Source of the DNA: Thermodesulfobacteriota bacterium | GTDB lineage: Bacteria; Desulfobacterota; Desulfarculia; JACQYL01 | NCBI GenBank assembly: GCA_963675595.2 | Contig: CAXXLZ010000001.1 | Span: 768,001 to 832,000 of the forward strand | DNA: 64,000 nt | Reading direction: 5' to 3' | The notes under the pieces: generated by a model | Databases searched by the model: none | What the model was told of the DNA's origin: nothing | Seen by the model: the letters and a program-made list of their open reading frames with translations, nothing else | Position numbers and translations under genes: made by a program | Shown here: positions 15,016 through 30,636 of the stretch, in pieces | Layout: every line of letters starts with the position of its first letter | Position numbering within the stretch: the stretch's first letter is position 1

Positions 15016-17559
15016 TCATTCCATGCCCACCGGCTCGAATGTCTTCGAGATCATGATGTTCAGATCGGGCCGGCTGGACAGCACCGCCTTTGCGGAATCC
15101 GTATCCGTCACGGTGATGGTCAGCTGCTCACCCGTATGGGCCATGTGGGGAGCGGAAAAGACGTTTTTGAAAAACTCGCCCAAAAACGGGTGGAAATCCT
15201 CACCGTCGTAGGTATACACCGCCAGGGCGGAACCCACTTCATATTCCTGCAGATACAGGTTGAACCCCAGGTCCGCGCACTTCCAAATGCCCGAATGCAG
15301 GGTCTCTTTTGCGGGGAAGGTCTTGGTAATGGGTACTTGAACGGTGACGGGAGGCGTCTTCGTGTTGTCCGTGAGTACGGCGGTTCCCTGGGTGTCGGAA
15401 GAAAACACGATTTTCAAGGTTCGTTGCTGCTTCGGGTCCATGGAATCGGCCTGGAAGGTCCCGGAGTTGAACATGTCCGCCAGGAAGGCATAGAGGGAAG
15501 TGGGGTCCCCGGCGTAAATCACCACGGTGGACGCCGTGTCGTAATGCTGCACGTAAAAGTTGTAGTCCACTTTGTCCACGTTTCCCTTCCAGATGCCGGA
15601 ATAGGGAAGGTCGGCGATGCGAAGGCCGAAATGACCGGGCCCGCTGAGCACACCCAGTTCCCAGGTGTGATAGTAGAAGTCGGCGGAGCTGCCCCAAATC
15701 CAAAGGTGGTGCTGTTCCTCCCCATCCACCGCCGCGATGCTTCCGGAACTCTGCCCCAGTTCCGCCGTCACCGGGTAGTAGCCTCCGGCGGAAAGAGAGC
15801 CCATATCCTGTACGTCGAAGAGTTGTTCCGAGCCTCCATCGAAGTACAGTTTGTATTGATCCAGCCACCTCGCCCGCTCGAAAGAGGCGGATTCGTGCCC
15901 TATGTCGATATGGGTCCGGTATAGCAGCGCACCGTAATCGTGTCCGCTCCACGTCGTGGTGCCGGCTGCGAAATTGGCGTGAATCTGCGGATTGGAGGAG
16001 TTGATGAGTTCGAGCTCGAATTCCTGGCCGTTCAACTCCACGGAGTCGCCGTAAGCGTCGGGAGCACCCTCCGGGTTGTCGAAGTCGATGTATAAACGGA
16101 TCATATAACCCGCGCCGTCCAATATTTTTCCGGTCACCTCATGAGCGACGCCGTCGGACCCATAGTACGAACCCAGCCGCGCGTAGGAGTTGGCCGTGAC
16201 GTCCGAGAATTCGCCCGCCTGGACGTCCGTGGGGGGCATGGGTCTCGTTCGCCGGATGACGAGACGTCCGAGGTGTCCGTCATGATCCATATTCCATTCC
16301 CCCATCCACATGGCTTCGGGATTTTGACCCAGGAAGGGGCTCCTGACGCCGAGGACCACCGCGCCGCCGCCCGCCTGTTTCTCGATGTAATCGTAGGGAA
16401 CCCACAGGTAGGGAAGGTCGGGACCCCAGGAATTCTTGAGCAGGAGGAGCTTGCGTGTTCTGTCGTAGCCGATGATGAGGAGGGCGTGCCCGCTGACGGC
16501 ATCCTCGGTGTGGTTGGTGAAATCGCAAATGGGGTTCCCGTCGTCGTAGGTCTGTCCCGTATTACAGTCCAGATAGGGCTGATTGGCGCCACCCGGCTGG
16601 GACGCCGGGGGAGCGGCCTCCCAATTCAATCCGATGTAGACCTCCTTCTGATCCGCCAGGGTGTCCTCGATCAGCGAACTGTCCCTGGCCTCCGTCATGG
16701 TAAGAATCAACACACGTGTTGGTCCGTATTCGGCATTCTTCCGAGCGTCCAGGGGGATGAGCCGTTCATCGAATTCGTACGCGTCCAGCGCTTCCTGAGT
16801 CAGGGTGATTGCGGTTGCATTGCCCTTGTCGTCGAACTGATCGCACACCATACCCGAGTCCGTAACGATCGTGGCCCGGTCGGCGTCGCCGTGATAGGTC
16901 CCGTACTTATAGAGCTGGACATTGGCTCTGCCGAAATAAGGGGCATACTTCTCCAGAGGCAGGAACAGTCCGTTGGTGGCCGCCAAGGCGTGCCCGGGCA
17001 ACGTATGATCGGTATGGGTTCCGCACTGGGAAGTCCAGTTGTCGTGCATGAGTTCCGGCCGGTACGAGGCGTGGCTGGTGAAGACAATATGGATGAAATA
17101 TTCTTCCGAAAGATCGAACTCCTCACAACCCGCGTAACATTCAGGCGTGACGCAAATGAGGCTGCAATCGTTGGTGATGCCGTATTCCTGCCAGCGGGTC
17201 CATCCATCGGTGTACCGGTTCAGTTCGTGCAACCCATAAGTGCGGACGTACGCCGCCTCGAGGGCGCCGAGAAAGGCGAAGGACGGGCAGGAGCCGCGGT
17301 TGTTCTGGTCCTTCACTTCCGTTTGATAGGCCTTCAAGTCCAAATAGTCCGCGCTCGCGGGAGCCAGGGAAGCTCTAAATTCTTCCAACAGTTTCTTCTG
17401 TTCGGGCGAGACGGAGCGAATGGTCAGGCTTTCGGCGGGAACCAGGGTCGGCGGATCGTCGTATGCTCCCACGGCCTTGCCGGAATGGGCCTGTCGGGTC
17501 GGAACCAATGTGCAGAGCATTGCGACGACAAGAAGCAATCTCACAAGACCTGTGCGCAT
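15016..17559 (-). CDS. Secreted papain-like (C1A) cysteine peptidase with C-terminal accessory domains
   Basis: AAGGAG RBS, signal peptide, catalytic motifs QNNRGSCPSFA, DLSEEY, SGHALLIIGYD, LKNSWG. Confidence 0.85.
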   Translation of the reverse strand: MRTGLVRLLLVVAMLCTLVPTRQAHSGKAVGAYDDPPTLVPAESLTIRSVSPEQKKLLEEFRASLAPASADYLDLKAYQTEVKDQNNRGSCPSFAFLGALEAAYVRTYGLHELNRYTDGWTRWQEYGITNDCSLICVTPECYAGCEEFDLSEEYFIHIVFTSHASYRPELMHDNWTSQCGTHTDHTLPGHALAATNGLFLPLEKYAPYFGRANVQLYKYGTYHGDADRATIVTDSGMVCDQFDDKGNATAITLTQEALDAYEFDERLIPLDARKNAEYGPTRVLILTMTEARDSSLIEDTLADQKEVYIGLNWEAAPPASQPGGANQPYLDCNTGQTYDDGNPICDFTNHTEDAVSGHALLIIGYDRTRKLLLLKNSWGPDLPYLWVPYDYIEKQAGGGAVVLGVRSPFLGQNPEAMWMGEWNMDHDGHLGRLVIRRTRPMPPTDVQAGEFSDVTANSYARLGSYYGSDGVAHEVTGKILDGAGYMIRLYIDFDNPEGAPDAYGDSVELNGQEFELELINSSNPQIHANFAAGTTTWSGHDYGALLYRTHIDIGHESASFERARWLDQYKLYFDGGSEQLFDVQDMGSLSAGGYYPVTAELGQSSGSIAAVDGEEQHHLWIWGSSADFYYHTWELGVLSGPGHFGLRIADLPYSGIWKGNVDKVDYNFYVQHYDTASTVVIYAGDPTSLYAFLADMFNSGTFQADSMDPKQQRTLKIVFSSDTQGTAVLTDNTKTPPVTVQVPITKTFPAKETLHSGIWKCADLGFNLYLQEYEVGSALAVYTYDGEDFHPFLGEFFKNVFSAPHMAHTGEQLTITVTDTDSAKAVLSSRPDLNIMISKTFEPVGME

Positions 17560-17735
17560 GGTATGGACTCCTTTATGCTTGGGTGAGATTCGGGAAGGCA
17601 TCCTTGAAAGTCGATGCCTTTCATTGCATTATCCTGCGGGGCTTCTTCCCTTATTTCTCCCCAATAGATTGCTGAATCATTGCGTCTTTCCGGTACTTGG
17701 CCCGGAAACCGTACCGAACCTTCGTGATTGACTTA

Positions 17736-19684: not shown

Positions 19685-20896
19685 CTACACCAACCACCGT
19701 ACGTGGTAGTCCGCCTTTTCCAACCGATCGACGATATCTTGCGAATGTTCGGCGTCCCGCGTTTCGAGGTTGAGTTGTACCCGGGAGAATTTGATGGGCG
19801 TTTGCAGGGATAGGCGGTCGTGAACGATGTGCAGGATATTGGCTTCGAGTTCGGCGACAATGCCCAGGAGGTTCCAAAGGGCCCCCGGCACGTCCGGCAG
19901 GTCCAGTTCCAGACGGATCAGCCTTCCCATGCGCATGGCGCCACGCTGGAGAATGCGGTCGATGACTGCGGTTTCGACGTTGCCGCCGCTCACGATGAGA
20001 ACATAACGCCTGCTTTGGATGTGGATTCGTCGTTCCATCAGGGCGGCCAGGGGGACCGCGCCCGCTCCCTCCACGACCAGACCGGCGCGTTCAATAAAGG
20101 TGAAAACGGCTCCGGCGATGGCCTCTTCATCCACGGTGACGATTTCGTCCACGAAGTCCCGCATGATGTCATAGGTCAGGTCGCCGGTCTTGCTCACGGC
20201 GATTCCGTCGGCCAGTGTGGGCAACGCATCCACCCGGATGGGCTTCCCCATTTCTCGTGATGCCTGCGCCGAGGGGCAGCTTTGCGTTTGGACTCCCACA
20301 ACGCGCACGGCGGGATTGATGGATTTGACCGCCGTTGCGATACCTGAAATGAGCCCTCCTCCTCCAACGGGCACCACCACCGTGGTGTCCGGAGTGAGGA
20401 CCTCGTTGATCTCGACTCCTATAGTCCCCTGGCCGGCCATAACGTGAAGATCGTCAAAAGCCGGGATCAGTACCTTCCCGGACTTTGCGGAGAGTTCCGC
20501 GGCATGGGTTTTCGCGTCATCAAAACAGGAGCCGTGGAGCACGACTTGGGCCCCCATTTCCCGGACGGCGGCCAATTTGCGAATGGACGCGTTCTTCGGC
20601 ATGACCACGGTGGCCCGTAATCCGAGCCGGTTCGCGGCCCAGGCCACTCCCTGTGCATGGTTGCCCGCGGAGGCGGCCACCACACCTTCGGCTCTCTCGT
20701 CTTCCGTGAGGCGCAGGAGGCGATTGTAGGCGCCCCTTACCTTGAAGGAACCGGTTTCCTGAAGGTTTTCCAGTTTGAGGCAGACCTCCGCCCCCACCTG
20801 ACGACTCAATGAGCCCGAACGTATCAGGGGAGTGGCGGGAAGCACTTGTTGCAGCGTCGTGTGAGCGCTGCGAATGTCTTCAATGGTGAGGTGCAT
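19685..20896 (-). CDS. ilvA: Threonine/serine ammonia-lyase with C-terminal ACT domain
   Basis: PLP lysine motif KLENLQETGSFKVRGA, SAGNHAQG, PVGGGGL, SGGN, and ACT segment 'LPDVPGAL'. Confidence 0.92.
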   Translation of the reverse strand: MHLTIEDIRSAHTTLQQVLPATPLIRSGSLSRQVGAEVCLKLENLQETGSFKVRGAYNRLLRLTEDERAEGVVAASAGNHAQGVAWAANRLGLRATVVMPKNASIRKLAAVREMGAQVVLHGSCFDDAKTHAAELSAKSGKVLIPAFDDLHVMAGQGTIGVEINEVLTPDTTVVVPVGGGGLISGIATAVKSINPAVRVVGVQTQSCPSAQASREMGKPIRVDALPTLADGIAVSKTGDLTYDIMRDFVDEIVTVDEEAIAGAVFTFIERAGLVVEGAGAVPLAALMERRIHIQSRRYVLIVSGGNVETAVIDRILQRGAMRMGRLIRLELDLPDVPGALWNLLGIVAELEANILHIVHDRLSLQTPIKFSRVQLNLETRDAEHSQDIVDRLEKADYHVRWLV

Positions 20897-20954
20897 GGCG
20901 GCGTTCCGTAACGGCATGGACTCAAGTGGGTTGGGCGTAAAATTCGACGGATGA

Positions 20955-21425
20955 TCAGAGATCAAGAATTCGTTTCAATGCCGAGGGCTCTAATCGAAAG
21001 GGACTTCCTTTGCCTTGGTAAAAGCCGTGGTCATGGATCATATGCACGACCAAGTCGGTGTAGCTGATCTTTTCGCCGGTTTCTTTTTTCTCCAGTCGAA
21101 CCATCCCCTTACGGTAAAGTCCCGGATGGGGCCAGGGACAGGCGATTTTTCCCCGGGCTTCTTGAACTTCCACCAGGAAAGCTCCTTCCACTTCCACCGG
21201 CTCCCCCCATCCTTTTCTGCCTTCTTCCATAAGCAGATGTAACCGATCCGCGATTTGCTCATGCGTGAGGCCCAAGGAATGGACCGTACAATCGTCTCCG
21301 CTCAGGATTTCGATCAAACGTCGGTCGTCTTGACCCATGAAGCCGTGAGCAGGAGAGGCCCGAAGTCTCATCTTCTCTTCCAACCGATCCAGCCACGGAC
21401 CTTGGATCACCCGGTCCTGCGCCAT
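20955..21425 (-). CDS. Hypothetical protein with CPWxH and HxxxxHGFYxG motifs
   Basis: 156-aa ORF with GAGGAG RBS, packed between the NqrF-like gene and ilvA. Confidence 0.7.
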   Translation of the reverse strand: MAQDRVIQGPWLDRLEEKMRLRASPAHGFMGQDDRRLIEILSGDDCTVHSLGLTHEQIADRLHLLMEEGRKGWGEPVEVEGAFLVEVQEARGKIACPWPHPGLYRKGMVRLEKKETGEKISYTDLVVHMIHDHGFYQGKGSPFRLEPSALKRILDL

Positions 21426-21446: not shown

Positions 21447-22550
21447 TCAGGCAAACTTGTCATAGAATATTTGTTCCTTGGGAACGCCCATTTGGGTAAG
21501 CTGCTGCTCGACGGACTCCACCATGGCCGGATTTCCGCAGATATAGGCTTCCACATTGGAGGGGTCCTTAACGAGATCGGGGATGACATCGGTAACACGA
21601 CCCCGCGGGCCTTCCCATTGCTCATGTTCTTCGGGTCTGGAAAGGGTGTGTACGACCTTGAGATCGGGAATCCGTTCTTTCAGCCGGTTCAGTTCCTCGA
21701 GGTAAAACAGGTCTCCCATACGGCGGGCCCCGAAGACCAGAAAGACTTTGCGGCGAATGTTTTCGTCCGCCAAGTGGTGCAGGATGGACATGATGGGGGC
21801 GAGTCCGGAGCCTGTGGCCACCAACAGAACATCCCGCTCCGAATCTCTGAGGTAGAATTCTCCATGGGGACCGTTAAGAAGCGTTTCGTCCCCTTCGTTC
21901 AGATGTTCATGCACGTAAGTCGTGGCGATGCCTTGGGGCACACGCGTAATGATCAGGTGAATTTCTTCGCCTTTGCTCGCCGGTGAAGCGATGGAATAGG
22001 CGCGATAAACCGGCTCGTCCGAATCTCCGTATTCGGGGATTCGAAGCTGGACGAACTGGCCGGCCTTGAATTCCATCACGGGCGGATCGACGAGTTTCAA
22101 GCGGACCTCCTTCATATCCTCGGCGATGTCTCGAAGTCCCGATATCCTGGCCGTGAACTCCTTAATGTAAAACAACTCGGGTGGAATGTGGATGGCCAGA
22201 TCGTTGCGAACCTTCACCTGGCAGGAAAGTCGAACTTGGTCCTCGATTTCCTTCTTGTCCAGATAAGGCGTCTCCGTGGGCAAGAGGGGACCGGCTCCTT
22301 CGGAAACCTTGACCTTGCAGAGACCGCAGCTTCCTCTCCCGCCGCAAGCCGAAGGAATGAAAATACCTTCGTCGGTCAATATCCCCAGCAGGTGTCCTCC
22401 CCCTTGGACCACCAGTTCCCGATCGCCTTCATTGATGGAAATCCTGCACTCTCCATAATCTGCGAAATAGGAATCGGCGGTTTCGAGGCACAAAGCGAGG
22501 AACCCCGCGAGTGCGCTCAATGCCAGAATTCCTACGAAAACACTCACCAT
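21447..22550 (-). CDS. nqrF: NqrF-like membrane-anchored [2Fe-2S]/FAD NAD(P)H oxidoreductase
   Basis: N-terminal TM helix, CGGRGSCGLC...RLSC, RAYSIAS, ATGSGLAP, YICG, terminal DKFA. Confidence 0.85.
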   Translation of the reverse strand: MVSVFVGILALSALAGFLALCLETADSYFADYGECRISINEGDRELVVQGGGHLLGILTDEGIFIPSACGGRGSCGLCKVKVSEGAGPLLPTETPYLDKKEIEDQVRLSCQVKVRNDLAIHIPPELFYIKEFTARISGLRDIAEDMKEVRLKLVDPPVMEFKAGQFVQLRIPEYGDSDEPVYRAYSIASPASKGEEIHLIITRVPQGIATTYVHEHLNEGDETLLNGPHGEFYLRDSERDVLLVATGSGLAPIMSILHHLADENIRRKVFLVFGARRMGDLFYLEELNRLKERIPDLKVVHTLSRPEEHEQWEGPRGRVTDVIPDLVKDPSNVEAYICGNPAMVESVEQQLTQMGVPKEQIFYDKFA

Positions 22551-22560
22551 GGATCGGACC

Positions 22561-23154
22561 TCACTGCATCTGGATCATGCCGCTGAAACCCATGAATGCG
22601 AGGGCCATCAGACCGGCAATAATGAGGCTGATCCCGGGACCCTCCAAAGGGGTCGGGATTTTGGCTTTGGCGAGCTTCTCCCGGATGCCGCCCATGGCCA
22701 CGATGGCCAAAGTCCATCCGATTCCTCCTCCGGCACCGTAGGCCACGGATTGGACAAAAGAGTAGTTACGGATGATCATGAAAAGGCAAACCCCAAGAAT
22801 TGCACAATTCACGGTGATCAATGGAAGAAATACGCCCAGGACGACGTAAAGTACCGGAGAATAGCGTTCAATGACCATTTCAACCAACTGAACAAAAGCG
22901 GCGATAACGATGATAAACGCGATGAAACGAAAGTGCTCAAGGCCGAAGGGCACGAGGAGTTGGTGATAGACGAGATGGTTCAGCCCGGACGTGCACGTCA
23001 TCACGAAAATGACTGCCAAGCCCAAGCCGAGTGCCGGCTTCACCTCCCTCGATATGGCCAGGAAGGAGCACATACCCAGGAAGTTGGTCAGCAGGATGTT
23101 GTTCGTAAAGATCGCCGCGAAAAAGATTACGAACGCGGTGGTGCCTAGTTCCAT
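22561..23154 (-). CDS. nqrE: NqrE/RnfA family membrane subunit
   Basis: Cys-containing motifs FLGMCSFLAIS and LPLITVNCAILG. Confidence 0.88.
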   Translation of the reverse strand: MELGTTAFVIFFAAIFTNNILLTNFLGMCSFLAISREVKPALGLGLAVIFVMTCTSGLNHLVYHQLLVPFGLEHFRFIAFIIVIAAFVQLVEMVIERYSPVLYVVLGVFLPLITVNCAILGVCLFMIIRNYSFVQSVAYGAGGGIGWTLAIVAMGGIREKLAKAKIPTPLEGPGISLIIAGLMALAFMGFSGMIQMQ

Positions 23155-23164
23155 GGGAAATCCT

Positions 23165-23800
23165 TCAACGTGCGGCCGTTTCCGCGCCGCCTTCCTTCTT
23201 GTCGGATTTGGATCCGGCGGCGCGGACGATCCAAATCACCACGGCCAGCATAAAAAAGGCTCCGGGCGGCATTACCATTATCGTCCAGCGGGTCATGTCC
23301 GATGGGGTTACCGGGTAACCGAAAACCGTTCCGAACCCCAGAAGTTCCCTGACGAAGGCCACGGCGAGAAGTACCAGCGCATATCCCAATCCCGAAGCGA
23401 TACCGTCGATGAAACTCGGCCACGGAGGATTGTTCCTGGCGAAGGCTTCGCATCTTCCCATAATGATGCAGTTGGTGATGATGAGCCCCACGTATGCGCC
23501 CAACGCTTCGCTGATATCCGGCAGGTAGGCCTTCAGCAAAATATCCACGATGATTACGTAGGAAGCGATGATCAGGGTTTGAACCATCATCCGGATGCGT
23601 GAGGGCGTCACCTTTCTCAAAATGGAGACGGTGACACAGGATAGAGAGGTGACGAAAATAAGGCTGACGCCCATGATCAGGGTATTCAACATGAGATTCG
23701 TTACGGCCAGAGCCGAACAAATTCCGAGGATCTGCCTGAATACGGGGTTCTCTTCCCACAACCCCTTGATCATGATTTTTCGAGTGCCGATGTGACCCAC
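23165..23800 (-). CDS. nqrD: NqrD/RnfE family membrane subunit
   Basis: NP..QILGICSALAVT and VGLIITNCIIMGR. Confidence 0.88.
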   Translation of the reverse strand: MGHIGTRKIMIKGLWEENPVFRQILGICSALAVTNLMLNTLIMGVSLIFVTSLSCVTVSILRKVTPSRIRMMVQTLIIASYVIIVDILLKAYLPDISEALGAYVGLIITNCIIMGRCEAFARNNPPWPSFIDGIASGLGYALVLLAVAFVRELLGFGTVFGYPVTPSDMTRWTIMVMPPGAFFMLAVVIWIVRAAGSKSDKKEGGAETAAR

Positions 23801-23816
23801 AATTGACCTCTTGACC

Positions 23817-24470
23817 TTATTTGGACCCTATTCGTTTTCCCGACAACTCGGCGAGTTGGGGCAGCACCCTGTGGATACTCGCGTTTATGAGCCGCTCGAC
23901 GGCTTTGCTGGTACCCGTGGCGCCGGTGACGGCATCGACTTCGTTCGCCCCTTTGACGGCTTCGGGCGGGCGCAGCCGGAAAAATACTTCGTCCGGGGCC
24001 GGCGATGAGGGAAGCATTTTACCTTTGAATTGCTCGGTGAACCAGGATTCGCTGATTCTACCACCCAGTCCGGGTGTCTCGGAATGCTTGTAAAAGGCGA
24101 CACCAAGGACCTCTCGAAGATCGGGACCTAGACCCATCATGCCGTGAATGGGACCCCAGAATCCCGGTCCCGACAGTTGAAAGGCATAACCCACGGTCCC
24201 GGCGCCGTGATCCGATTTGCCGATGTATACGGGACCGGACTCCAATTGCACCGTTTTCACCCTGTTCTTGAACAGCTCCAACACCCCCTGACCTTCGACA
24301 CCGGGAGGCACCGAAATATTCAGAACTTTGAGGATGATCCCCTCTAATTTGATCCGGTCGTTGGTTTCGATTCTGTCCTGGTTCAATCCATACACGATGC
24401 TGACCACCGTGCCGAAGAACAGGGTGATCAGGAACATGTACAAAACCGAAAATGCCCTGTTTCGTTTCAT
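23817..24470 (-). CDS. nqrC: NqrC/RnfG family FMN-binding subunit
   Basis: GPGFWGPI, HSETPGLG, and flavinylation motif DAVTGAT. Confidence 0.88.
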   Translation of the reverse strand: MKRNRAFSVLYMFLITLFFGTVVSIVYGLNQDRIETNDRIKLEGIILKVLNISVPPGVEGQGVLELFKNRVKTVQLESGPVYIGKSDHGAGTVGYAFQLSGPGFWGPIHGMMGLGPDLREVLGVAFYKHSETPGLGGRISESWFTEQFKGKMLPSSPAPDEVFFRLRPPEAVKGANEVDAVTGATGTSKAVERLINASIHRVLPQLAELSGKRIGSK

Positions 24471-25435
24471 GCCTTTTTTTCACCGCGGTGCTGTAGTTCT
24501 TTGACGGCGATATCCATCACTGCCGCGAAGGTGTTCATGAAAAGGACGGAAAACATGAATCCTTCGGCGAAACTCGAATAGGCTCGAAAGGTCATGCACA
24601 GGCCCCCCACGATAAACCCGTAGATCCATTGGGCCGGTTTTGTTTTGGGCCCGGTGATGGGTTCGGTGACCACGAAAAAAGCGCCGAACAGAAAAGAGCC
24701 GGCCAGCATTGAAGTCAGGGGATCCTGCACGTTCACGCCGGCCCACCACAGGAGGATGCTCACAATGGCGGCTCCCAGCAGGCACGACACGGCGAGACGC
24801 CAGGGAGCGGATTTCTTAAAGATGATGTAGGCACCGCCGATGAGTATCAACCAAGCGGCGGTTTCCCCCAGGGAACCGGACACCGTGCCCCAAAACAGAC
24901 CCTCCGTGGATACGTTCCCTCCTTCGGCGAGTACCTGCAAGGGGGTGGCGCGACTCACGGCGTCCACGGACGGAGTCCAGTGAAGAAAACCTCCGGGGAA
25001 TTGGGAAAAGGGCTCGACCCACTTGTTGGTCATGGCCGTGGGAAACGCTATGTAGATGAAACAGCGGCCGGCCATGGCCGGATTAAACGCATTGAAGCCG
25101 AAGCCCCCAAAGACCATCTTTCCGAATACCACCGCAAACAATATCCCTACCAGGGCCATCCAGAAAGGGATCGTGGGCGGCAGACTCAGAGTATAAATCA
25201 GTGAGGTCACCAGCACGGCGGAAGTGATGGGCTTGCCTTGTTTCAACGTGAACAGACCTTCGGCAATCACGGCGGCCGCAGTGACCATGAGCAGGAGAAC
25301 CAACGACCGAACTCCGAAAAAGAAAACCGAGGCCGCCAGACACGGCGCCAGACCGTAACACACGTGCACCATCATGGGTTGCACGAGGAATCTCTTCTTG
25401 CCCTTGGGGGCTGCTTTGGCTTCCTGTGGGGTCAC
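24467..25435 (-). CDS. NqrB/RnfD family membrane subunit (short, RnfD-sized)
   Basis: KMVFGGFGFNAFNPA, flavinylation motif DAVSRATPL, GSLGET, TEPITGP. 322 aa. Confidence 0.88.
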   Translation of the reverse strand: MTPQEAKAAPKGKKRFLVQPMMVHVCYGLAPCLAASVFFFGVRSLVLLLMVTAAAVIAEGLFTLKQGKPITSAVLVTSLIYTLSLPPTIPFWMALVGILFAVVFGKMVFGGFGFNAFNPAMAGRCFIYIAFPTAMTNKWVEPFSQFPGGFLHWTPSVDAVSRATPLQVLAEGGNVSTEGLFWGTVSGSLGETAAWLILIGGAYIIFKKSAPWRLAVSCLLGAAIVSILLWWAGVNVQDPLTSMLAGSFLFGAFFVVTEPITGPKTKPAQWIYGFIVGGLCMTFRAYSSFAEGFMFSVLFMNTFAAVMDIAVKELQHRGEKKA

Positions 25436-25551
25436 ATTCCGATCCGAAAGTTAACGATTCTCCGCGGCGAACTCCGATCCCGCACGTCCCGCACACCACC
25501 GCAGTTTAGATTTCGTTGCAGGCGATTTCAACAGAAGAAGAAATATCCGGA

Positions 25552-25580
25552 ATTATATATCTTGGAGGGCCTGATGAGAA
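25552..25580 (-). promoter_or_regulatory. Candidate sigma70 promoter for the nqr-like genes
   Basis: Minus strand TTCTCA-N17-TATAAT in the 236-bp spacer between lpdA and the NqrB/RnfD gene. Confidence 0.45.
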
Positions 25581-25671
25581 AGCCTTGCGAAGGGCCGGAT
25601 GTATTCGGCGAGATCGGCCCTCCCTACCGGTGCGCCCGGCGCAGCGGGCGTCACTCGCCGGTCTGACGCGG

Positions 25672-27120
25672 TTATTGCTCCACATGTGCTCGGTTCTTCC
25701 CGCTTTTTGGAAGGACATGCGTGGATGTTCCCATGATGATCTCGGCGGCTTCACCTTCGGTTTCCGACAGAGTCGGGTGCGCATGAATGGTGAGCGCCAA
25801 GTCTTCGGCCACAGCGCCCATCTCCATGGCGAGGACCGCTTCCGCTATGATTCCTTCGGCCTGGCGTCCCACGACTCCGACGCCCAGAATTCTACCGTCC
25901 TCCGGGTTTACGATCATTTTGGTCATTCCTTCGGGCGCCTCCATACTCAAGGCACGCCCGGAGTATTTCCAGGGGAAGCGTGACACTTCCACCCTGATTC
26001 CTTTGGCTCGGGCCGACTCTTCAGTAAGGCCGCACCATGCGATCTGGGGTGTGGTGTACACCACCGCGGGAATCGCCCGTACGTCGAACGCCGACGACTT
26101 CCCGGCGATGACTTCGGCGGCGATCTTGCCCTCACGCATGGCCTTGTGGGCCAGCATGTATCCACCGACCACATCGCCGATCGCCAGAATTTTGGGGTCG
26201 GAGGTTCGTTGTTGATCGTCCGCTACCACGTAACCCCGGTCATTGAGTTTCACTTGCGTGTTTTCGAGTCCCAATCCCTGAGTGTTCGGGTCCCTGCCGA
26301 CGGCTACGAGCACCCGATCGAATGTCCGATCGGCGTTTTCCCCCTCTCCCTCAAGAGAAACCTCCACACGGTCGTCGAACTCCTTCAAGGATTTGACTTT
26401 CGTGTTGAAGTGAATCGCTTTGAAAGCGCTCTCGAGTCTTCGTTTCAGGGGCGCCACCAAATCCGGATCCGCCGGACGCACCAATCGGTCCCTGTGCACC
26501 ACCAGGGTGATTTCCGTGCCCAAAGAGGCGTACACGGAGCCCATTTCCAACGCTACGTAGCCTCCCCCCACGATAAGCATGGACTTCGGGATATCAGATA
26601 ATTTGAGAGCTCCGGTAGAACCGAAAACACGGCCGTCTTCGTTGATGGAGATACCTTGAAGAGTGCTGGGCCGGGAACCGGTGGCCAGGATTGCGTGACG
26701 GAAACGAATGCGGCGCACTTCGGCGTCCTGGAGGCGCACCGTGTCCGAGCTCTCAAAGGTCGTTTTTCCCTTGATGAATTGAACGCCGCGCTTCTTGCAC
26801 AATTCCAGAAGACCGTCTGTGAGCTTACTCACCACGCCGTCTTTCCAACCGCGAATCTTATCGACGTCGATTTTCGGCTCCCCGAAGGTAAGGCCGAAAG
26901 CGGAGGCCTCTTGCGCGTCGTTGATCAATTCGGACACGTGGAGCAAGGCCTTGGAAGGGATGCAGCCCCGATTGAGGCAGACGCCTCCCGGCTTGGGGTC
27001 CATATCCACCATGGCTACATCCAGGCCGAGGTCGGCCGCTCGAAAGGCCGCCGCATATCCACCCGGACCGCTGCCGACGACCAGCAGCTCAACGTCTTCC
27101 GTGAATTCGCCCATGACCAT
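25672..27120 (-). CDS. lpdA: Dihydrolipoamide dehydrogenase (E3) with NADP-type fingerprint
   Basis: GSGPGGY, redox disulfide GGVCLNRGCIPSK, HAHPTLSE. Confidence 0.95.
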   Translation of the reverse strand: MVMGEFTEDVELLVVGSGPGGYAAAFRAADLGLDVAMVDMDPKPGGVCLNRGCIPSKALLHVSELINDAQEASAFGLTFGEPKIDVDKIRGWKDGVVSKLTDGLLELCKKRGVQFIKGKTTFESSDTVRLQDAEVRRIRFRHAILATGSRPSTLQGISINEDGRVFGSTGALKLSDIPKSMLIVGGGYVALEMGSVYASLGTEITLVVHRDRLVRPADPDLVAPLKRRLESAFKAIHFNTKVKSLKEFDDRVEVSLEGEGENADRTFDRVLVAVGRDPNTQGLGLENTQVKLNDRGYVVADDQQRTSDPKILAIGDVVGGYMLAHKAMREGKIAAEVIAGKSSAFDVRAIPAVVYTTPQIAWCGLTEESARAKGIRVEVSRFPWKYSGRALSMEAPEGMTKMIVNPEDGRILGVGVVGRQAEGIIAEAVLAMEMGAVAEDLALTIHAHPTLSETEGEAAEIIMGTSTHVLPKSGKNRAHVEQ

Positions 27121-27197: not shown

Positions 27198-28541
27198 TCA
27201 GATGACCATGAGTAATCGCTCGGGATCCTCCAATGCCTTGACGATTTCGATCAGGAAGCGTTCGGCGTCCGCCCCGTCGAGTACCCTGTGATCGAAAGAA
27301 AGCATGATGGGCAGAATCAACCTGGGTTTGATTTCATAGTCTCCGTTTTCCACGTCCCCTTGGACGACGGGCTGCCATGAAGCCCGGGCAAGCCCCAAAA
27401 TGGCCGCCTCAGGATAATTGATGATGGGGGCGAAGGCGGTTCCCCCCAAAGGACCGATGTTTGTAATGGTGAAGGTGCCGCCCTGCATTTCTTCCAGTTT
27501 GATTTTTCGGTCTCGGGTTCTTTGGGACAGCTCGAAAAGTTCCACCGCCAGTTCGCGGATGCTTTTGCGGTCCACGTCGCGGATCACCGGTACGATGAGT
27601 CCGTCCGGCGTGTCCACGGCTACTCCGATATGATAATATTTCTTCAGAATGATTTCTTCGGATTCCATGTCCAACGAGGCGTTGAAGCGGGGGAATTTCT
27701 TCAAGGCGGCAACGGCCGCTTTCAGGGCGAACACCGTGAGCGTAAGTCGGCCGCCGAGTTCCTCGATTTCCTGTTTATGCTTTTTCCGCAGGGCGTCCAG
27801 TTGGGTGATATCCGCGATTTCCTGGCTGCCCACATGAGGGATCTGCGCCCATGCCAGGGCCATCTGACGGGCGGTGGCTTTCCGCACCGAACGCAGGGGG
27901 ATCCTTTCCACTTCTCCCCATTTACCCATGTCCGGAAGAGTGGGGGCCTTGGTGGATGGGGCTTCGACCGGTCGAGCTGCTTTTTCCTGTCTCGTCGGGG
28001 TCGCTTCCGCTTGTGCCGAAAAGGCCTTAACGTCTTCGGAGGTTACCCGTCCCGAAGGGCCGGACGGAGTCACCCGGTGCAGGTCGACTCCCAACTCGCG
28101 AGCGAGACGCCTGGTAGCCGGAGAGGCCGGAACCGGTCCTTGCTCCGTGGTCTTCGCCTCCTCCCGACCTTGCTTCGAGGGTTCGGGTTTGGGTTGCTCG
28201 GGAGGTTTCTTCTTGGGTTCCTCTCCCTCGGCCTTGGCCTTCTCGTCTTCTTCCTTCTCGGGCTTGGCTGAGGCGGACGACGGCTCCTGTTTCGGGGGCG
28301 CCGCTCCGTCGGAAAAGGTCACGAGCACATCTCCCACGTGAACCACATCGCGCACTTGCACCGAGATCTTTTCCACGGCTCCTGTGAAGGGGGACGGAAT
28401 CTCAACGGTGGCTTTGTCCGTTTCGACCTCGAGAATGGGGTCTCCTTCCTCGACTTGGTCCCCTTGGTTGACCAGAATGGAGACAATTTCTCCTTCGTGG
28501 ATTCCTTCTCCCAGATCGGGCAGCTTGAATTCCGCAGACAT
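27198..28541 (-). CDS. pdhC: Dihydrolipoamide acyltransferase (E2), single lipoyl domain
   Basis: Lipoyl motif EVETDKA, E3-binding ASPATRRLARELGVDL, catalytic FDHRVLDG. Confidence 0.93.
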   Translation of the reverse strand: MSAEFKLPDLGEGIHEGEIVSILVNQGDQVEEGDPILEVETDKATVEIPSPFTGAVEKISVQVRDVVHVGDVLVTFSDGAAPPKQEPSSASAKPEKEEDEKAKAEGEEPKKKPPEQPKPEPSKQGREEAKTTEQGPVPASPATRRLARELGVDLHRVTPSGPSGRVTSEDVKAFSAQAEATPTRQEKAARPVEAPSTKAPTLPDMGKWGEVERIPLRSVRKATARQMALAWAQIPHVGSQEIADITQLDALRKKHKQEIEELGGRLTLTVFALKAAVAALKKFPRFNASLDMESEEIILKKYYHIGVAVDTPDGLIVPVIRDVDRKSIRELAVELFELSQRTRDRKIKLEEMQGGTFTITNIGPLGGTAFAPIINYPEAAILGLARASWQPVVQGDVENGDYEIKPRLILPIMLSFDHRVLDGADAERFLIEIVKALEDPERLLMVI

Positions 28542-28553
28542 GGGTTCTCCTCG

Positions 28554-29537
28554 CTATTTCACGCTCAAGACGTTTCGGGCCGCTTTGGTGATCCGTTGCG
28601 CATCGGGGAGGTAGTCGTTCTCCCTTGCGAACAGAGGAATCACGATATCGAAGCCCGTGACGCGGGCAATGGGGGCCTCCAGATAGAAGAAAGCCTTTTC
28701 CATGATTCGGGTGATAATCTCCGCACCCGGTCCAAAGCTCCTGGGAGCTTCGTGAACGATCACGGCCCTTCCGGTCTTGCGTACCGATTCGGCGATCGGC
28801 TCGTCGTCCAGGGGAGAAATCGTCAGCAGATCGATGACCTCACATTCCACACCGTCGGATTCCTTCAGTTGCTCGGCCGCTTCGAGGGTAGGGCGCATCA
28901 TGGCCCCGTAGGCCACCATGGTCAGGTCCTTTCCTTCCCGGACAACTCGGGGCTTCCCGATGGGGAAAGTCTCCTCTTCTTCGGGGACCTCTTCCCTGAA
29001 TGCTCGATACACAGCCTTGGGTTCGTAAAAAATTACCGGGTCGGGGTCCCGGATGGCGCTGATAAGTAGAGATCGGGCGATTCTCGGGCCGGACGGGATC
29101 ACCATTTTGAGGCCGGGCGTATGAGCCCAATAGGCTTCGCGGCTCTCGGAATGGTGCTCAAGGGCGCGTACGCCCCCACCGTAGGGCGTCCTCAATACCA
29201 TGGGAACCTGATATTTCCCCTGGGAGCGTCTTCGGATGCGGGCGGCGTGGCTTTCCAGTTGATGGAAATTCTCATAAGTGAAACCCGAAAACTGAATTTC
29301 ACAGATCGGCCGCAGGCCATAGATCGCCATGCCGATGGACATGCCGACAATGCCTGATTCAGCCAAGGGTGTGTCCATGACCCGATTTTCCCCGAACTTC
29401 CCGACAAGGCCCTCCGTGACCCGGAAAACCCCCTCGTCTCTGCCCACGTCCTCGCCGAGGAGGATGACACGGTCGTCTTTTTCCATCTCCTGATGCAACG
29501 CCAAATTGATCGCCTGGACCATGTTCATTTTAGCCAT
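28554..29537 (-). CDS. pdhB: 2-oxoacid dehydrogenase E1 beta subunit
   Basis: GEDVG..GVFRVT, DTPLAESGI, EIQF, ALEHHSES. Confidence 0.93.
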   Translation of the reverse strand: MAKMNMVQAINLALHQEMEKDDRVILLGEDVGRDEGVFRVTEGLVGKFGENRVMDTPLAESGIVGMSIGMAIYGLRPICEIQFSGFTYENFHQLESHAARIRRRSQGKYQVPMVLRTPYGGGVRALEHHSESREAYWAHTPGLKMVIPSGPRIARSLLISAIRDPDPVIFYEPKAVYRAFREEVPEEEETFPIGKPRVVREGKDLTMVAYGAMMRPTLEAAEQLKESDGVECEVIDLLTISPLDDEPIAESVRKTGRAVIVHEAPRSFGPGAEIITRIMEKAFFYLEAPIARVTGFDIVIPLFARENDYLPDAQRITKAARNVLSVK

Positions 29538-30636
29538 GATCAGCCTCCTGCCTGCGCTCACTCAGCTCCCGGGAAAGCTCTTCTTTTTGCTCTTCGAGGG
29601 CGGGAGTCAACTCTTGGAAGGTATGGAGAAACATGTCGAGCGGGTCTCCGGAGTCTTTCATCATCTTCTCCGAATGCTCCACCGCGGTCTGGATTTCGGC
29701 CTTGATCTCTTCTTCGATCCCTTCGATGTCCTTGTCGGTAAGAAGCCCCTTGTTCTTCAGGTAGGTCTGATATCGAACGATGGGATCCTTCTTTTTCCAT
29801 TCGTTCACTTCGTCTTCGGACCGGTACCTTTTGGGATCGTCGGCGGTGGTGTGCATCATGATTCGGTAGGTCTCACATTCGATCAAAGTGGGGCCTTCTC
29901 CTTTGCGGGCCCTATCCACCGCTTCACCCACGGCGGTGTAAACCGCGAGGATATCGTTTCCGTCCACTTGGATGCCGGGTATGCCGTAGGCAATGGCCTT
30001 CTGTGCCAAAGTCTTGGAGCGGGTCTGTTTGGACCGGGGCACGGAAATCGCCCACTGGTTGTTTTGGCAAACGAAAATCACCGGGAGCGTGAAAACGCCG
30101 GCGAAATTCATGGCTTCGTGAAAATCCCCTTCCGAGGTGGCGCCGTCGCCGAAGAAAGTCATGGCCACGGAGTCCTTCTCACGATATTTCATTCCCCAAG
30201 CCAAACCAACGGCGTGGAGAGTCTGGCTTCCTACCGGCACGGCTATGGGAAGGTCGTTGCGATCGTCCTCGGGCCTTCCTCCTTCGTCATACCCGGCAAA
30301 ATAGAGGAGTGCGGAAGCAGGGTCTTTGCCGCGCCAGGTCTCCGCCAGGCTTTCCCTGAAGCACGGCACCATCCAGTCATCCCTGCGGAGATGAACCGCG
30401 GCTCCCAGTTGCGCCGCCTCCTGGCCCGAAATAGGGGCGAAAGTCCCGATCCGGCCTTGTCGCTGCAGGTTCAAGAGGCGTTCGTCGAATCTTCTTCCGG
30501 ACAGCATGGCCCTATGCATCTTAAGCAGAAAGTCGTCCGGGATGTCGGGCTCCAGGGATTGATCCAATTCTCCATGTTCGTCCAGAATGGACAAACGCTC
30601 CACCCGGCAGGGCAGATCGATTTCCGTCCTCGGCAT
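29530..30636 (-). CDS. pdhA: 2-oxoacid dehydrogenase E1 alpha subunit
   Basis: ThDP motif GDGATSEGDFHE...QNN, HTTADD, LQRQGRIG. Confidence 0.93.
   Translation of the reverse strand: MPRTEIDLPCRVERLSILDEHGELDQSLEPDIPDDFLLKMHRAMLSGRRFDERLLNLQRQGRIGTFAPISGQEAAQLGAAVHLRRDDWMVPCFRESLAETWRGKDPASALLYFAGYDEGGRPEDDRNDLPIAVPVGSQTLHAVGLAWGMKYREKDSVAMTFFGDGATSEGDFHEAMNFAGVFTLPVIFVCQNNQWAISVPRSKQTRSKTLAQKAIAYGIPGIQVDGNDILAVYTAVGEAVDRARKGEGPTLIECETYRIMMHTTADDPKRYRSEDEVNEWKKKDPIVRYQTYLKNKGLLTDKDIEGIEEEIKAEIQTAVEHSEKMMKDSGDPLDMFLHTFQELTPALEEQKEELSRELSERRQEADHG

Follow-up and report, generated by a model that had tools for sequence, protein, structure and literature searches.

NQR and RNF are the two characterized branches of a major family of redox-driven ion pumps; the cytoplasmic face of the B subunit is covered by NqrA in NQR and by RnfC in RNF. 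We analyzed a 64,000-nt stretch of a Thermodesulfobacteriota genome (contig C1:768001-832000 of assembly G000, which holds 6.8 Mb in 3 contigs and is 98% complete), referred to here as the window, in which five colinear genes encode a pump of this family, B-C-D-E-F, that is A-less. The question raised by this locus is where electrons leave such a complex. The answer that we favor, at close to even odds (about 0.45), is that the cluster together with a sixth gene, X, constitutes an NqrA-less membrane redox pump of the NQR/RNF superfamily whose exit is served by X. All five pump frames are intact, and the open reading frames (ORFs) and Pfam families bear out the five colinear genes reported by the first-pass annotation, which had been made from the DNA letters alone. 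The six genes are as follows (window coordinates; lengths in amino acids, aa).

24467-25435, minus strand: B subunit, NqrB/RnfD type, 322 aa (PF03116, E 5e-84)
23817-24470, minus strand: C subunit, NqrC/RnfG type, 217 aa, with a periplasmic domain binding flavin mononucleotide (FMN) (FMN_bind PF04205, E 1.3e-16)
23165-23800, minus strand: D subunit, NqrD/RnfE type, 211 aa (PF02508, Rnf-Nqr family)
22561-23154, minus strand: E subunit, NqrE/RnfA type, 197 aa (PF02508)
21447-22550, minus strand: F subunit, NqrF type, 367 aa, with an N-terminal membrane helix followed by Fer2, FAD_binding_6 and NAD_binding_1 domains
20955-21425, minus strand: X, a soluble protein of 156 aa and sixth gene of the unit, downstream of F after a 21-nt gap

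The A-less layout is widespread. F orthologs are present in 5 of 40 relatives (6 of 41 genomes including G000), and B-C-D-E-F is found in all five loci; the arrangement is whole in three of these genomes from the upstream 2-oxoacid dehydrogenase genes through X (E1-E2-E3-B-C-D-E-F-X; G001, G002 and G003), with the threonine dehydratase gene also present in G001 and G002. A scan with an F alignment, taking one genome per species, confirmed at least 564 relatives, and the best 80 were fetched; with the loci of the five relatives they form a set of 85 related loci, all chosen by F similarity. The best 80 loci belong to Syntrophobacterales and other Thermodesulfobacteriota, Spirochaetota, Lentisphaerota, Verrucomicrobiota, Kiritimatiellia, Planctomycetota, Bacillota, Atribacterota, Moduliflexota and others, and A-less loci span at least seven phyla. 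Wherever tblastn found the upstream genes in these 80 loci, the order is B-C-D-E-F; F and X alone were found in L022, L044 and L075, and in nine of the 80 loci the cluster lies partly beyond the contig end. The RnfC of G000 has no tblastn match in any of the 80 loci. Upstream of B the genes differ from locus to locus, and Pfam identified neither NqrA nor RnfC among 102 ORFs there (the two nearest ORFs of at least 110 aa, in the 56 loci with at least 1.5 kb upstream of B).

What does recur is X. Of the 75 loci whose downstream DNA extends for 600 nt or more, 71 have a homolog directly after F, at a distance of 7-203 nt over the 71 loci and of 7-51 nt in 63 of them. This co-occurrence is not circular because the loci were picked by their similarity to F, not to X. 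The conserved unit is thus of six genes, B-C-D-E-F-X, so that the label 'five-subunit' given to the cluster in the first-pass annotation is one gene short, while its suggestion of the downstream 156-aa protein as a candidate partner is strongly backed by this conservation. X is missing from L039, L049, L089 and L095 and, among the loci of the relatives, from L014 and L015. Five of these (L014, L015, L039, L049 and L095) form one nested subclade with a support of 100 in a D+E tree from which L089 is absent, which points to secondary loss of X. A gene of the Ldh/Mdh type stands divergently upstream of B in X-less L014, L039 and L049.

The X protein is conserved in sequence. An alignment of 40 sequences across phyla contains 10 invariant and 11 nearly invariant columns. 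There is no Pfam, NCBIfam or PDB sequence match to X (a PDB profile search reached a best E of 0.58), and Pfam searches at E<=1 with 40 members gave scattered chance matches only. The ESM Atlas returned 'hypothetical protein' clusters only, one of them with DUF7919 on 13% of its members, and a word-indexed search likewise returned only 'hypothetical protein' names, one of them from a Thermotogota metagenome-assembled genome (P0152). The AlphaFold2 model (pLDDT 92.7, pTM 0.87) consists of three helices, a four-stranded sheet and two more helices; Foldseek found nothing in the PDB at E<=0.001, the best Z from VIA-align over 48,161 chains was 2.7, and the fold may still exist among unsolved or predicted structures. 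By exhaustive profile search X has 2076 cluster representatives (50% identity) at E<=0.001 and 1088 at E<=1e-10. In a complex prediction with B, F (residues 31-367) and X, run without controls, X as partner scored 0.35, 0.25 and 0.21 against a mark of 0.32, values that speak neither way on binding.

The pump subunits retain the cofactor residues. The SRAT motif of B occupies residues 161-164; among 38 A-less relatives, 36 have T and 2 have S in its threonine column. The TGAT motif of C occupies residues 182-185, and there 32 of the 38 have T and 6 have S. These are sequence motifs, and the flavinylation itself is predicted. The cluster ligands Cys28 and Cys111 of D and Cys29 and Cys117 of E are invariant in 38 of 38 A-less, 12 of 12 NQR and 4 of 4 hybrid rows and in all Rnf rows. 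The flavinylation threonines and membrane Fe-S cysteines noted earlier in this one cluster are therefore conserved across its relatives as well.

Profile scores of the subunits are intermediate and lean to NQR. B scores 217.9 with rnfD TIGR01946, over the subfamily cut-off of 207.05, against 210.5 with nqrB NF003756 (cut-off 414) and 186 with TIGR01937 (cut-off 349.9), both of which it aligns only from about model position 110. C reaches 91.4 bits with nqrC and 74.8 with rnfG, both under the cut-offs; D is over the cut-off of 235 with nqrD NF006777 (244.3; rnfE models, 177-195); E ties between nqrE (226.3) and rnfA (221.9), both under the cut-offs; and the best model for F is nqrF TIGR01941 at 248.3, under its cut-off of 295. 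The canonical Rnf subunits encoded elsewhere in this genome score clearly as Rnf. Searched against PDB sequences, B scores about as high with RnfD (126-132 bits) as with V. cholerae NqrB (128-130 bits), but the alignment to the latter starts only at NqrB residue 138/142, matched to B residue 53/57, and the first ~50 residues of B align with RnfD only. B is without the first 85-110 residues of NqrB, and both profile and PDB alignments bear out the earlier description of an RnfD-sized subunit with no NqrB-like N-terminal extension. The B model (AlphaFold2, pLDDT 81.7) gives Foldseek TMq values of 0.79-0.82 to NqrB and of 0.75-0.79 to RnfD (best chain per Rnf entry; a second A. vinelandii chain, 8rbq_D, gives 0.69); it covers RnfD almost fully (TMt 0.74-0.80) and NqrB over only about two-thirds (TMt 0.63-0.69). 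F has V. cholerae NqrF as its best PDB sequence match (192.8 bits), with residues 3-179, a stretch spanning membrane helix and ferredoxin domain, colinear with NqrF 3-184; it is ~40 aa shorter than canonical NqrF, and the FNR-like part is the shorter portion.

Phylogeny places the A-less cluster beside NQR. Quick IQ-TREE trees with SH-aLRT support and no bootstraps, rooted on Rnf, were built from concatenated D+E (59 rows, 397 columns) and from B (60 rows, 324 columns), with 12 canonical nqrABCDEF loci from two phyla, 4 hybrid loci and 6 canonical rnf loci as references; Bacteroidota, Chlamydiota and Gammaproteobacteria are outside the NQR sample. All 38 A-less rows form one clade (support 94 for D+E and 91 for B), sister to the clade of all 16 A-bearing NQR rows (99 and 100), and the two together stand apart from Rnf (100 and 99). 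The cluster of the window lies inside the A-less clade in a subclade with 95-100 support. The A-less cluster is, by these trees, a distinct and ancient sister lineage of Na+-NQR that would share with it the acquisition of NqrF. Because it forms its own clade, sister to NQR, in both trees, it is not an NQR in decay, nor is it an Rnf whose input was exchanged. Rather than by the label 'hybrid' used in the first-pass annotation, the cluster is better described as a distinct sister lineage of NQR; the subunit phylogenies proposed there put the A-less clade outside the sampled canonical NQR.

The four hybrid loci are of separate interest. They are full A-B-C-D-E-F clusters in other Thermodesulfobacteriota (L113, 79-1404; L114, 29-1351; L116, 94-1419; and L115) and branch at the base of canonical NQR in the B tree. 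By Pfam, the A subunits of L113, L114 and L116 contain NQRA_N, NQRA_2nd and NQRA_SLBB followed by a C-terminal RnfC-like two-[4Fe-4S] ferredoxin domain, with no Complex1_51K FMN domain; for the L115 subunit there is only a tblastn match to the Fe-S end of RnfC. Such A subunits may be intermediates between RnfC and NqrA.

Comparison with the known systems brings out what is particular to the six-gene unit. With the Na+-NQR NqrABCDEF (V. cholerae; PDB 7XK3, 8A1T/8A1U) it shares the B-C-D-E-F gene order, an NqrF-type NADH input subunit with membrane helix, 2Fe-2S, FAD (flavin adenine dinucleotide) and NAD domains, the flavinylation threonines of B and C, the four cysteines of D/E and a D subunit that passes the nqrD cut-off, and the A-less clade is its sister group in both trees. 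It differs in having no NqrA in locus or genome, in a B of 322 aa against ~400-415 aa for NqrB, in the shorter F, in scores for B, C, E and F that miss the NCBIfam Nqr equivalog cut-offs and in the extra conserved gene X. With Rnf (RnfCDGEAB; A. woodii 9ERI, C. tetanomorphum 7ZC6, A. vinelandii 8AHX) it has in common the membrane core and a B that resembles RnfD in size, N-terminal alignment, subfamily cut-off and model coverage, but RnfC and RnfB are lacking, input is via the NqrF-type subunit, the trees split the two (99-100) and the genome has a separate canonical rnf operon of its own. The 'NQR/RNF-like' systems in the accessible part of PMC8238504, with an NqrB fused to an NAD-binding domain, were considered and set aside as another architecture.

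What X might deliver electrons to is suggested by its neighbors and fusions. A rubredoxin motif scan of the 85 related loci and the whole window identified 22 typical rubredoxin ORFs in 19 of the 85 loci; eight further motif matches are not rubredoxins, several of them lying within Fur-family genes, and six of the six rubredoxin ORFs tested belong to PF00301. A rubredoxin gene directly flanks the cluster in seven loci, upstream of B in L043, L050, L056, L072 and L086 and downstream of X in L081 and L092. The nearest larger ORFs include genes for rubrerythrin (L014, L023, L025, L029, L035, L081 and L092), desulfoferrodoxin (L019, L043, L050 and L076), flavodiiron-type ODP (L018 and L086), AhpC (L024) and Fur-family regulators (L018, L021, L042, L055 and L069). 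At least 25 of the 85 loci have a rubredoxin gene or one of these five kinds of gene; the true number may be higher, since the scan took in just two ORFs on each side.

Fusions of X have the same flavor. Among the 150 best X representatives, the 16 longer than ~175 aa were scanned with Pfam, and six carry another domain: rubredoxin after X in P0280 (210 aa) and P0293 (partial), rubrerythrin in P0261, nitroreductase in P0308, and, in front of X, AhpC/TSA in P0314 and a partial aldo-keto reductase in P0359. The remaining 10 have no Pfam domain. A word-indexed search for long fusions (294-2000 aa), a weak test, found none; the exhaustive profile search did find them. Of the 10 without a Pfam domain, six contain two to four X-like stretches, namely P0241 (885 aa), P0246 (2506), P0348 (945), P0387 (818), P0374 (468) and P0311 (385), which may be multi-X proteins or mis-called genes. 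It is because of the rubredoxin neighborhood and the X fusion pattern that a rubredoxin-type acceptor is the leading hypothesis for the family.

To the observed gene content, cofactor motifs, conservation, phylogeny and X co-occurrence we add an electron path predicted by homology. NAD(P)H would be oxidized at the FAD of F, and single electrons would pass from the 2Fe-2S cluster of F to the intramembrane cluster of D/E and on to the covalent FMN of C at the outer face, then to the covalent FMN and riboflavin of B and so back to the cytoplasmic face; this flow would drive the export of Na+ or H+. Gene context and fusions suggest that X serves the exit there in place of RnfC or NqrA. The most likely acceptor would be a small soluble iron protein of the rubredoxin type, with menaquinone as the main alternative in this organism. 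Delivery to a rubredoxin-type acceptor via X is a tentative proposal, at somewhat short of even odds. The fuller proposal, in which X is a new electron-exit module that makes of the core a membrane-bound, ion-pumping oxidoreductase from NADH to rubredoxin (or another small iron or flavin protein), we regard as possible and rather doubtful. The soluble NADH:rubredoxin oxidoreductases of anaerobes feed rubredoxin-dependent oxygen and peroxide reductases and are flavoproteins with neither a membrane part nor ion translocation; if the leading hypothesis is right, they would catalyze the same net reaction, as purely functional analogs with no homology to the A-less pump.

Several observations weigh against the favored reading. 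In the window, all of which was scanned for the motif, there is no rubredoxin or oxidative-stress gene near the cluster, and the four rubredoxin-domain genes of this 6.8-Mb genome all lie on another contig. Five other carrier genomes have 1-3 rubredoxin genes each; two of three are within 7 kb of the cluster in G333, but in the other four none is near it. No rubredoxin or other oxidative-stress neighbor of the kinds listed is seen among the ORFs tested in 60 of the 85 loci. X itself has no invariant cysteine, Cys96 of its CP[WF] motif being Ser in several members, and shows no recognizable cofactor motif; its function may lie in assembly and not in electron exit. The loss of X in one subclade implies that the complex can exist without it. 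The fused forms are metagenomic gene calls, some of which could be read-through of adjacent genes, although even these would show adjacency. Menaquinone marker genes in this genome keep a quinone acceptor possible, the trees are quick ones with SH-aLRT support only and a canonical NQR sample of 12 loci from two phyla plus 4 hybrid loci, and the literature search found no biochemistry of any A-less complex.

Other accounts of the exit start from the absence of the A/C subunit. RnfC and RnfB are both missing from the B-C-D-E-F locus by Pfam, NCBIfam and tblastn, in agreement with the first-pass annotation. TIGR01936, a model that matches 15 of 301 genomes of the phylum, finds no nqrA in the 98%-complete assembly, where the sole match to PF05896 (the NqrA N-domain) is the RnfC of the separate operon at 23 bits. 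Canonical NqrA gave nothing by tblastn in window or genome, and matches in the window to canonical NqrA, a hybrid A subunit and the organism's own RnfC are at chance level only (best E 0.036), none of them in the spacer at 25436-25671. PF03116 marks just two loci in the genome, the A-less cluster and the canonical rnfC-D-G-E-A operon at C1 ~102.9-107.0 kb, which holds the only rnfC; an ApbE flavin transferase gene is present elsewhere. A genome search for nqrA, rnfC and apbE had been proposed from the outset, and it leaves no nqrA whose partner subunits could fall within canonical NQR. In the region of the canonical rnf operon (L004, C1 ~98000-112000), RnfG matches the DVU2794-type exception model, and no rnfB was recognized among the 13 ORFs scanned around the operon, several small neighbors having no family. 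With these results, recent loss of the A/C gene from a canonical nqr or rnf operon now in decay has a practically negligible probability. The 236-nt spacer that precedes B might suggest such a loss, but it contains no A/C remnant, nor does the rest of the window; all frames are intact and the cofactor residues all kept, and the cluster belongs to a separate deep clade in the B and D+E trees. The A-less layout, moreover, is conserved in all 85 related loci across phyla, so a recent deletion, which had been raised earlier for this spacer, was rejected. Docking of the RnfC of the separate operon onto B, yielding an ion-coupled NAD(P)H:NAD+ transhydrogenase or a shared output module, is very unlikely. 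A canonical rnfC-rnfD pair does occur in 11 of 11 cluster-bearing genomes (G000, G001, G002, G003, G007, G040 and G332-G336), the accessible parts of two genome papers record the same co-occurrence in C. ultunense and Pseudothermotoga/Thermotoga (PMC5924567, PMC4148951), and B is RnfD-sized with an N-terminus that aligns with RnfD only. The co-occurrence is weak evidence, however, because rnfC is common without the cluster (21 of 35 relatives that lack it) and the genomes are kin rather than independent; the trans-encoded RnfC put forward in the first-pass annotation gains from the first count and loses by the second. In every genome checked the only full-length rnfC lies within the rnf operon, the identity of B to the solved RnfD structures is just 29-33%, transfer from NADH to NAD+ would be futile unless F is NADPH-specific, and X would be left unexplained.

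A plain NADH:menaquinone oxidoreductase, reducing quinone at B like Na+-NQR, with NqrA dispensable and X in an accessory or assembly role, is unlikely but has more in its favor. G000 encodes a menA-type gene (108 bits; cut-off 102.15) and two MqnA/MqnD genes (226.8 and 219.9 bits), and the A-less clade is sister to NQR. B, however, is without those first 85-110 residues of NqrB, and in V. cholerae the NqrB N-terminal stretch contributes to the quinone and inhibitor pocket. Marker genes were compared in three spirochaete genomes and one from Victivallales (G333-G336): the six-gene unit is present in G333, G334 and G336 with neither menA over the cut-off nor PF02621, in genomes whose completeness is not given, and in G335 with a weak 35.5-bit PF02621 match only and no menA over the cut-off. 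The near-universal X and its rubredoxin-type fusions would again go unexplained. In the accessible text of a 2025 review NqrA has no cofactor or assigned function, and ubiquinone is listed under NqrB in the cofactor table (PMC12174285), which favors reduction at B and renders out of date the earlier premise that NqrA forms the quinone-reducing side. The authors on Pseudothermotoga and C. ultunense, in the part of their paper available, argue on the other hand that the acceptor potential may lie below that of quinone (PMC5924567). Finally, X may have no part in the exit, being a maturation factor, a regulator or simply a linked gene, with electrons delivered outward from the FMN of C to the periplasm or to another cytoplasmic acceptor. 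We consider this quite unlikely. X has neither cofactor motif nor invariant cysteine, one subclade dispenses with it, and flavinylated FMN-binding domains serve many extracytosolic electron-transfer systems (PMC8238504, accessible part); yet the flavinylation threonine of B is retained (36 T and 2 S of 38), an argument for use of the return path through B, the X gene follows F closely (21 nt here, 7-51 nt in 63 of 71 loci) and the fusion partners of X are cytoplasmic redox proteins. An exit served by X remains the reading that we prefer.

The A-less layout itself is not new, having appeared in genome papers since 2014. In their accessible parts, these describe NqrBCDEF without NqrA in Thermotoga (Pseudothermotoga) thermarum and lettingae (2014; PMC4148951) and in Clostridium ultunense and P. 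lettingae (2018; PMC5924567), with the second substrate unknown in both, and list a five-gene cluster without NqrA for 'Ca. Izimaplasma' ZiA1 (PMC6256511). The five-gene order and absence of nqrA are identical to those seen here, and we infer that the published clusters are orthologous to the present clade. The anaerobes with published A-less clusters (C. ultunense, Pseudothermotoga/Thermotoga) also carry Rnf, according to the same partial sources (PMC5924567, PMC4148951). The first-pass annotation, too, had left the second redox terminus without a known partner, the same position as in the 2014 and 2018 papers. The text available from the three papers mentions no sixth gene, rubredoxin link, phylogenetic position or 2-oxoacid dehydrogenase link (PMC4148951, PMC5924567, PMC6256511), and the A-less form is not discussed in the available text of a 2014 evolution paper (PMC4014512) or of the 2025 review (PMC12174285). 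A literature search that left subscription journals and supplements uncovered returned genome-paper mentions only, with no sixth gene or rubredoxin link. So far as we found, then, what goes beyond print is (i) the near-universal sixth gene of unknown fold, (ii) its link by fusion and neighborhood to rubredoxin-type oxidative-stress proteins, (iii) the sister-clade position to NQR and (iv) the link, within one operon in this lineage, between the pump and an NADH-forming 2-oxoacid dehydrogenase.

That last link is apparent from the remaining genes of the co-oriented minus-strand run, which reads E1alpha-E1beta-E2-E3-spacer-B-C-D-E-F-X-threonine ammonia-lyase by ORF list and Pfam/NCBIfam families.

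29530-30636, minus strand: E1alpha of a 2-oxoacid dehydrogenase (TIGR03181, PDH_E1_alph_x, 458.4; cut-off 411.35)
28554-29561, minus strand: E1beta of the 2-oxoacid dehydrogenase (Transket_pyr and Transketolase_C; NF006667 304.6, under the cut-off of 321)
27198-28541, minus strand: E2 acyltransferase with lipoyl and E3-binding domains (PF00198, PF00364, PF02817)
25672-27120, minus strand: dihydrolipoyl dehydrogenase (E3), NADH-forming (TIGR01350 484.8; cut-off 408.8)
25552-25580, minus strand: promoter-like site within the 236-nt spacer that separates B from the E3 gene (consensus scan, 10/12; a pattern match only)
19685-20965, minus strand: threonine ammonia-lyase (TIGR01127 475.7; cut-off 378.75), its start overlapping the end of X by 11 nt

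The module is probably co-transcribed with the 2-oxoacid dehydrogenase and threonine ammonia-lyase genes. From this context, threonine would be converted to 2-oxobutyrate, and 2-oxobutyrate or pyruvate to acyl-CoA with NADH formed at E3; re-oxidation of the NADH of these neighboring enzymes, with conservation of energy, is most likely the local role of the pump. Genes for 2-oxoacid dehydrogenases lie near the cluster in 10 of the 85 related loci, in several phyla: colinear in L011, L012, L013 and L024, divergent in L027, L053, L055 and L069, downstream in L094, and as E3 alone in L042. An adjacency limited to these loci fits an NADH supplier, and the proposal in the first-pass annotation that E3 is a direct redox partner finds no support in it; we rejected that candidate, since the adjacency is lineage-specific and explained by NADH supply. 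Other NAD(P)-linked neighbors are Ldh/Mdh (L014, L039 and L049), glyceraldehyde-3-phosphate dehydrogenase (L014), glucose-6-phosphate dehydrogenase (L081) and glutamate dehydrogenase (L047).

A large natural clade, with F-type relatives in at least 564 species genomes, thus runs without NqrA, and it allows a direct test of whether NqrA is needed for pumping. X is a candidate for a new electron-exit module and a possible energy-conserving link from NADH to the rubredoxin-based oxygen defense of anaerobes. If this is true, strict anaerobes of many phyla could conserve energy while feeding their oxygen- and peroxide-detoxifying enzymes, and the present lineage could do so while oxidizing 2-oxoacids via an NADH-forming dehydrogenase complex. 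The tie between pump and NADH-producing dehydrogenase in a sulfate-reducer-type lineage suggests a route of NADH disposal in 2-oxoacid oxidation. The clade would, in addition, preserve a record of the Rnf-to-NQR transition, in which NqrF was gained before the A subunit was either dropped (A-less clade) or stripped of its cofactors (canonical NQR), with the hybrid NqrA as a step between.

Flavin-related genes are found beside the cluster in some relatives. Three spirochaete loci and one from Moduliflexota have a gene for a small PNPOx-like flavin-binding protein (pyridoxamine-phosphate-oxidase fold) that separates the A-less cluster from the 2-oxoacid dehydrogenase genes, and Syntrophobacterales relatives have flavin-supply genes next to the cluster, namely FAD synthetase/riboflavin kinase, RibD and a 679-aa protein with an ApbE C-terminal half.

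L053:4522-4986, minus strand: PNPOx-like protein
L055:4506-4952, minus strand: PNPOx-like protein
L069:4507-4968, minus strand: PNPOx-like protein
L094:9817-10254, plus strand: PNPOx-like protein
L019:3894-4916, plus strand: flavin-supply gene
L021:9938-11188, minus strand: flavin-supply gene
L020:9614-11653, minus strand: flavin-supply gene

Elsewhere in the window, the only match of an 861-aa ORF on the minus strand (15016-17601) is short and weak, to Peptidase_C1 (E 2e-05, residues 81-122), and NCBIfam assigns it to no family. It adjoins genes for an MntP-type manganese exporter and a 'delta'-type GspC.

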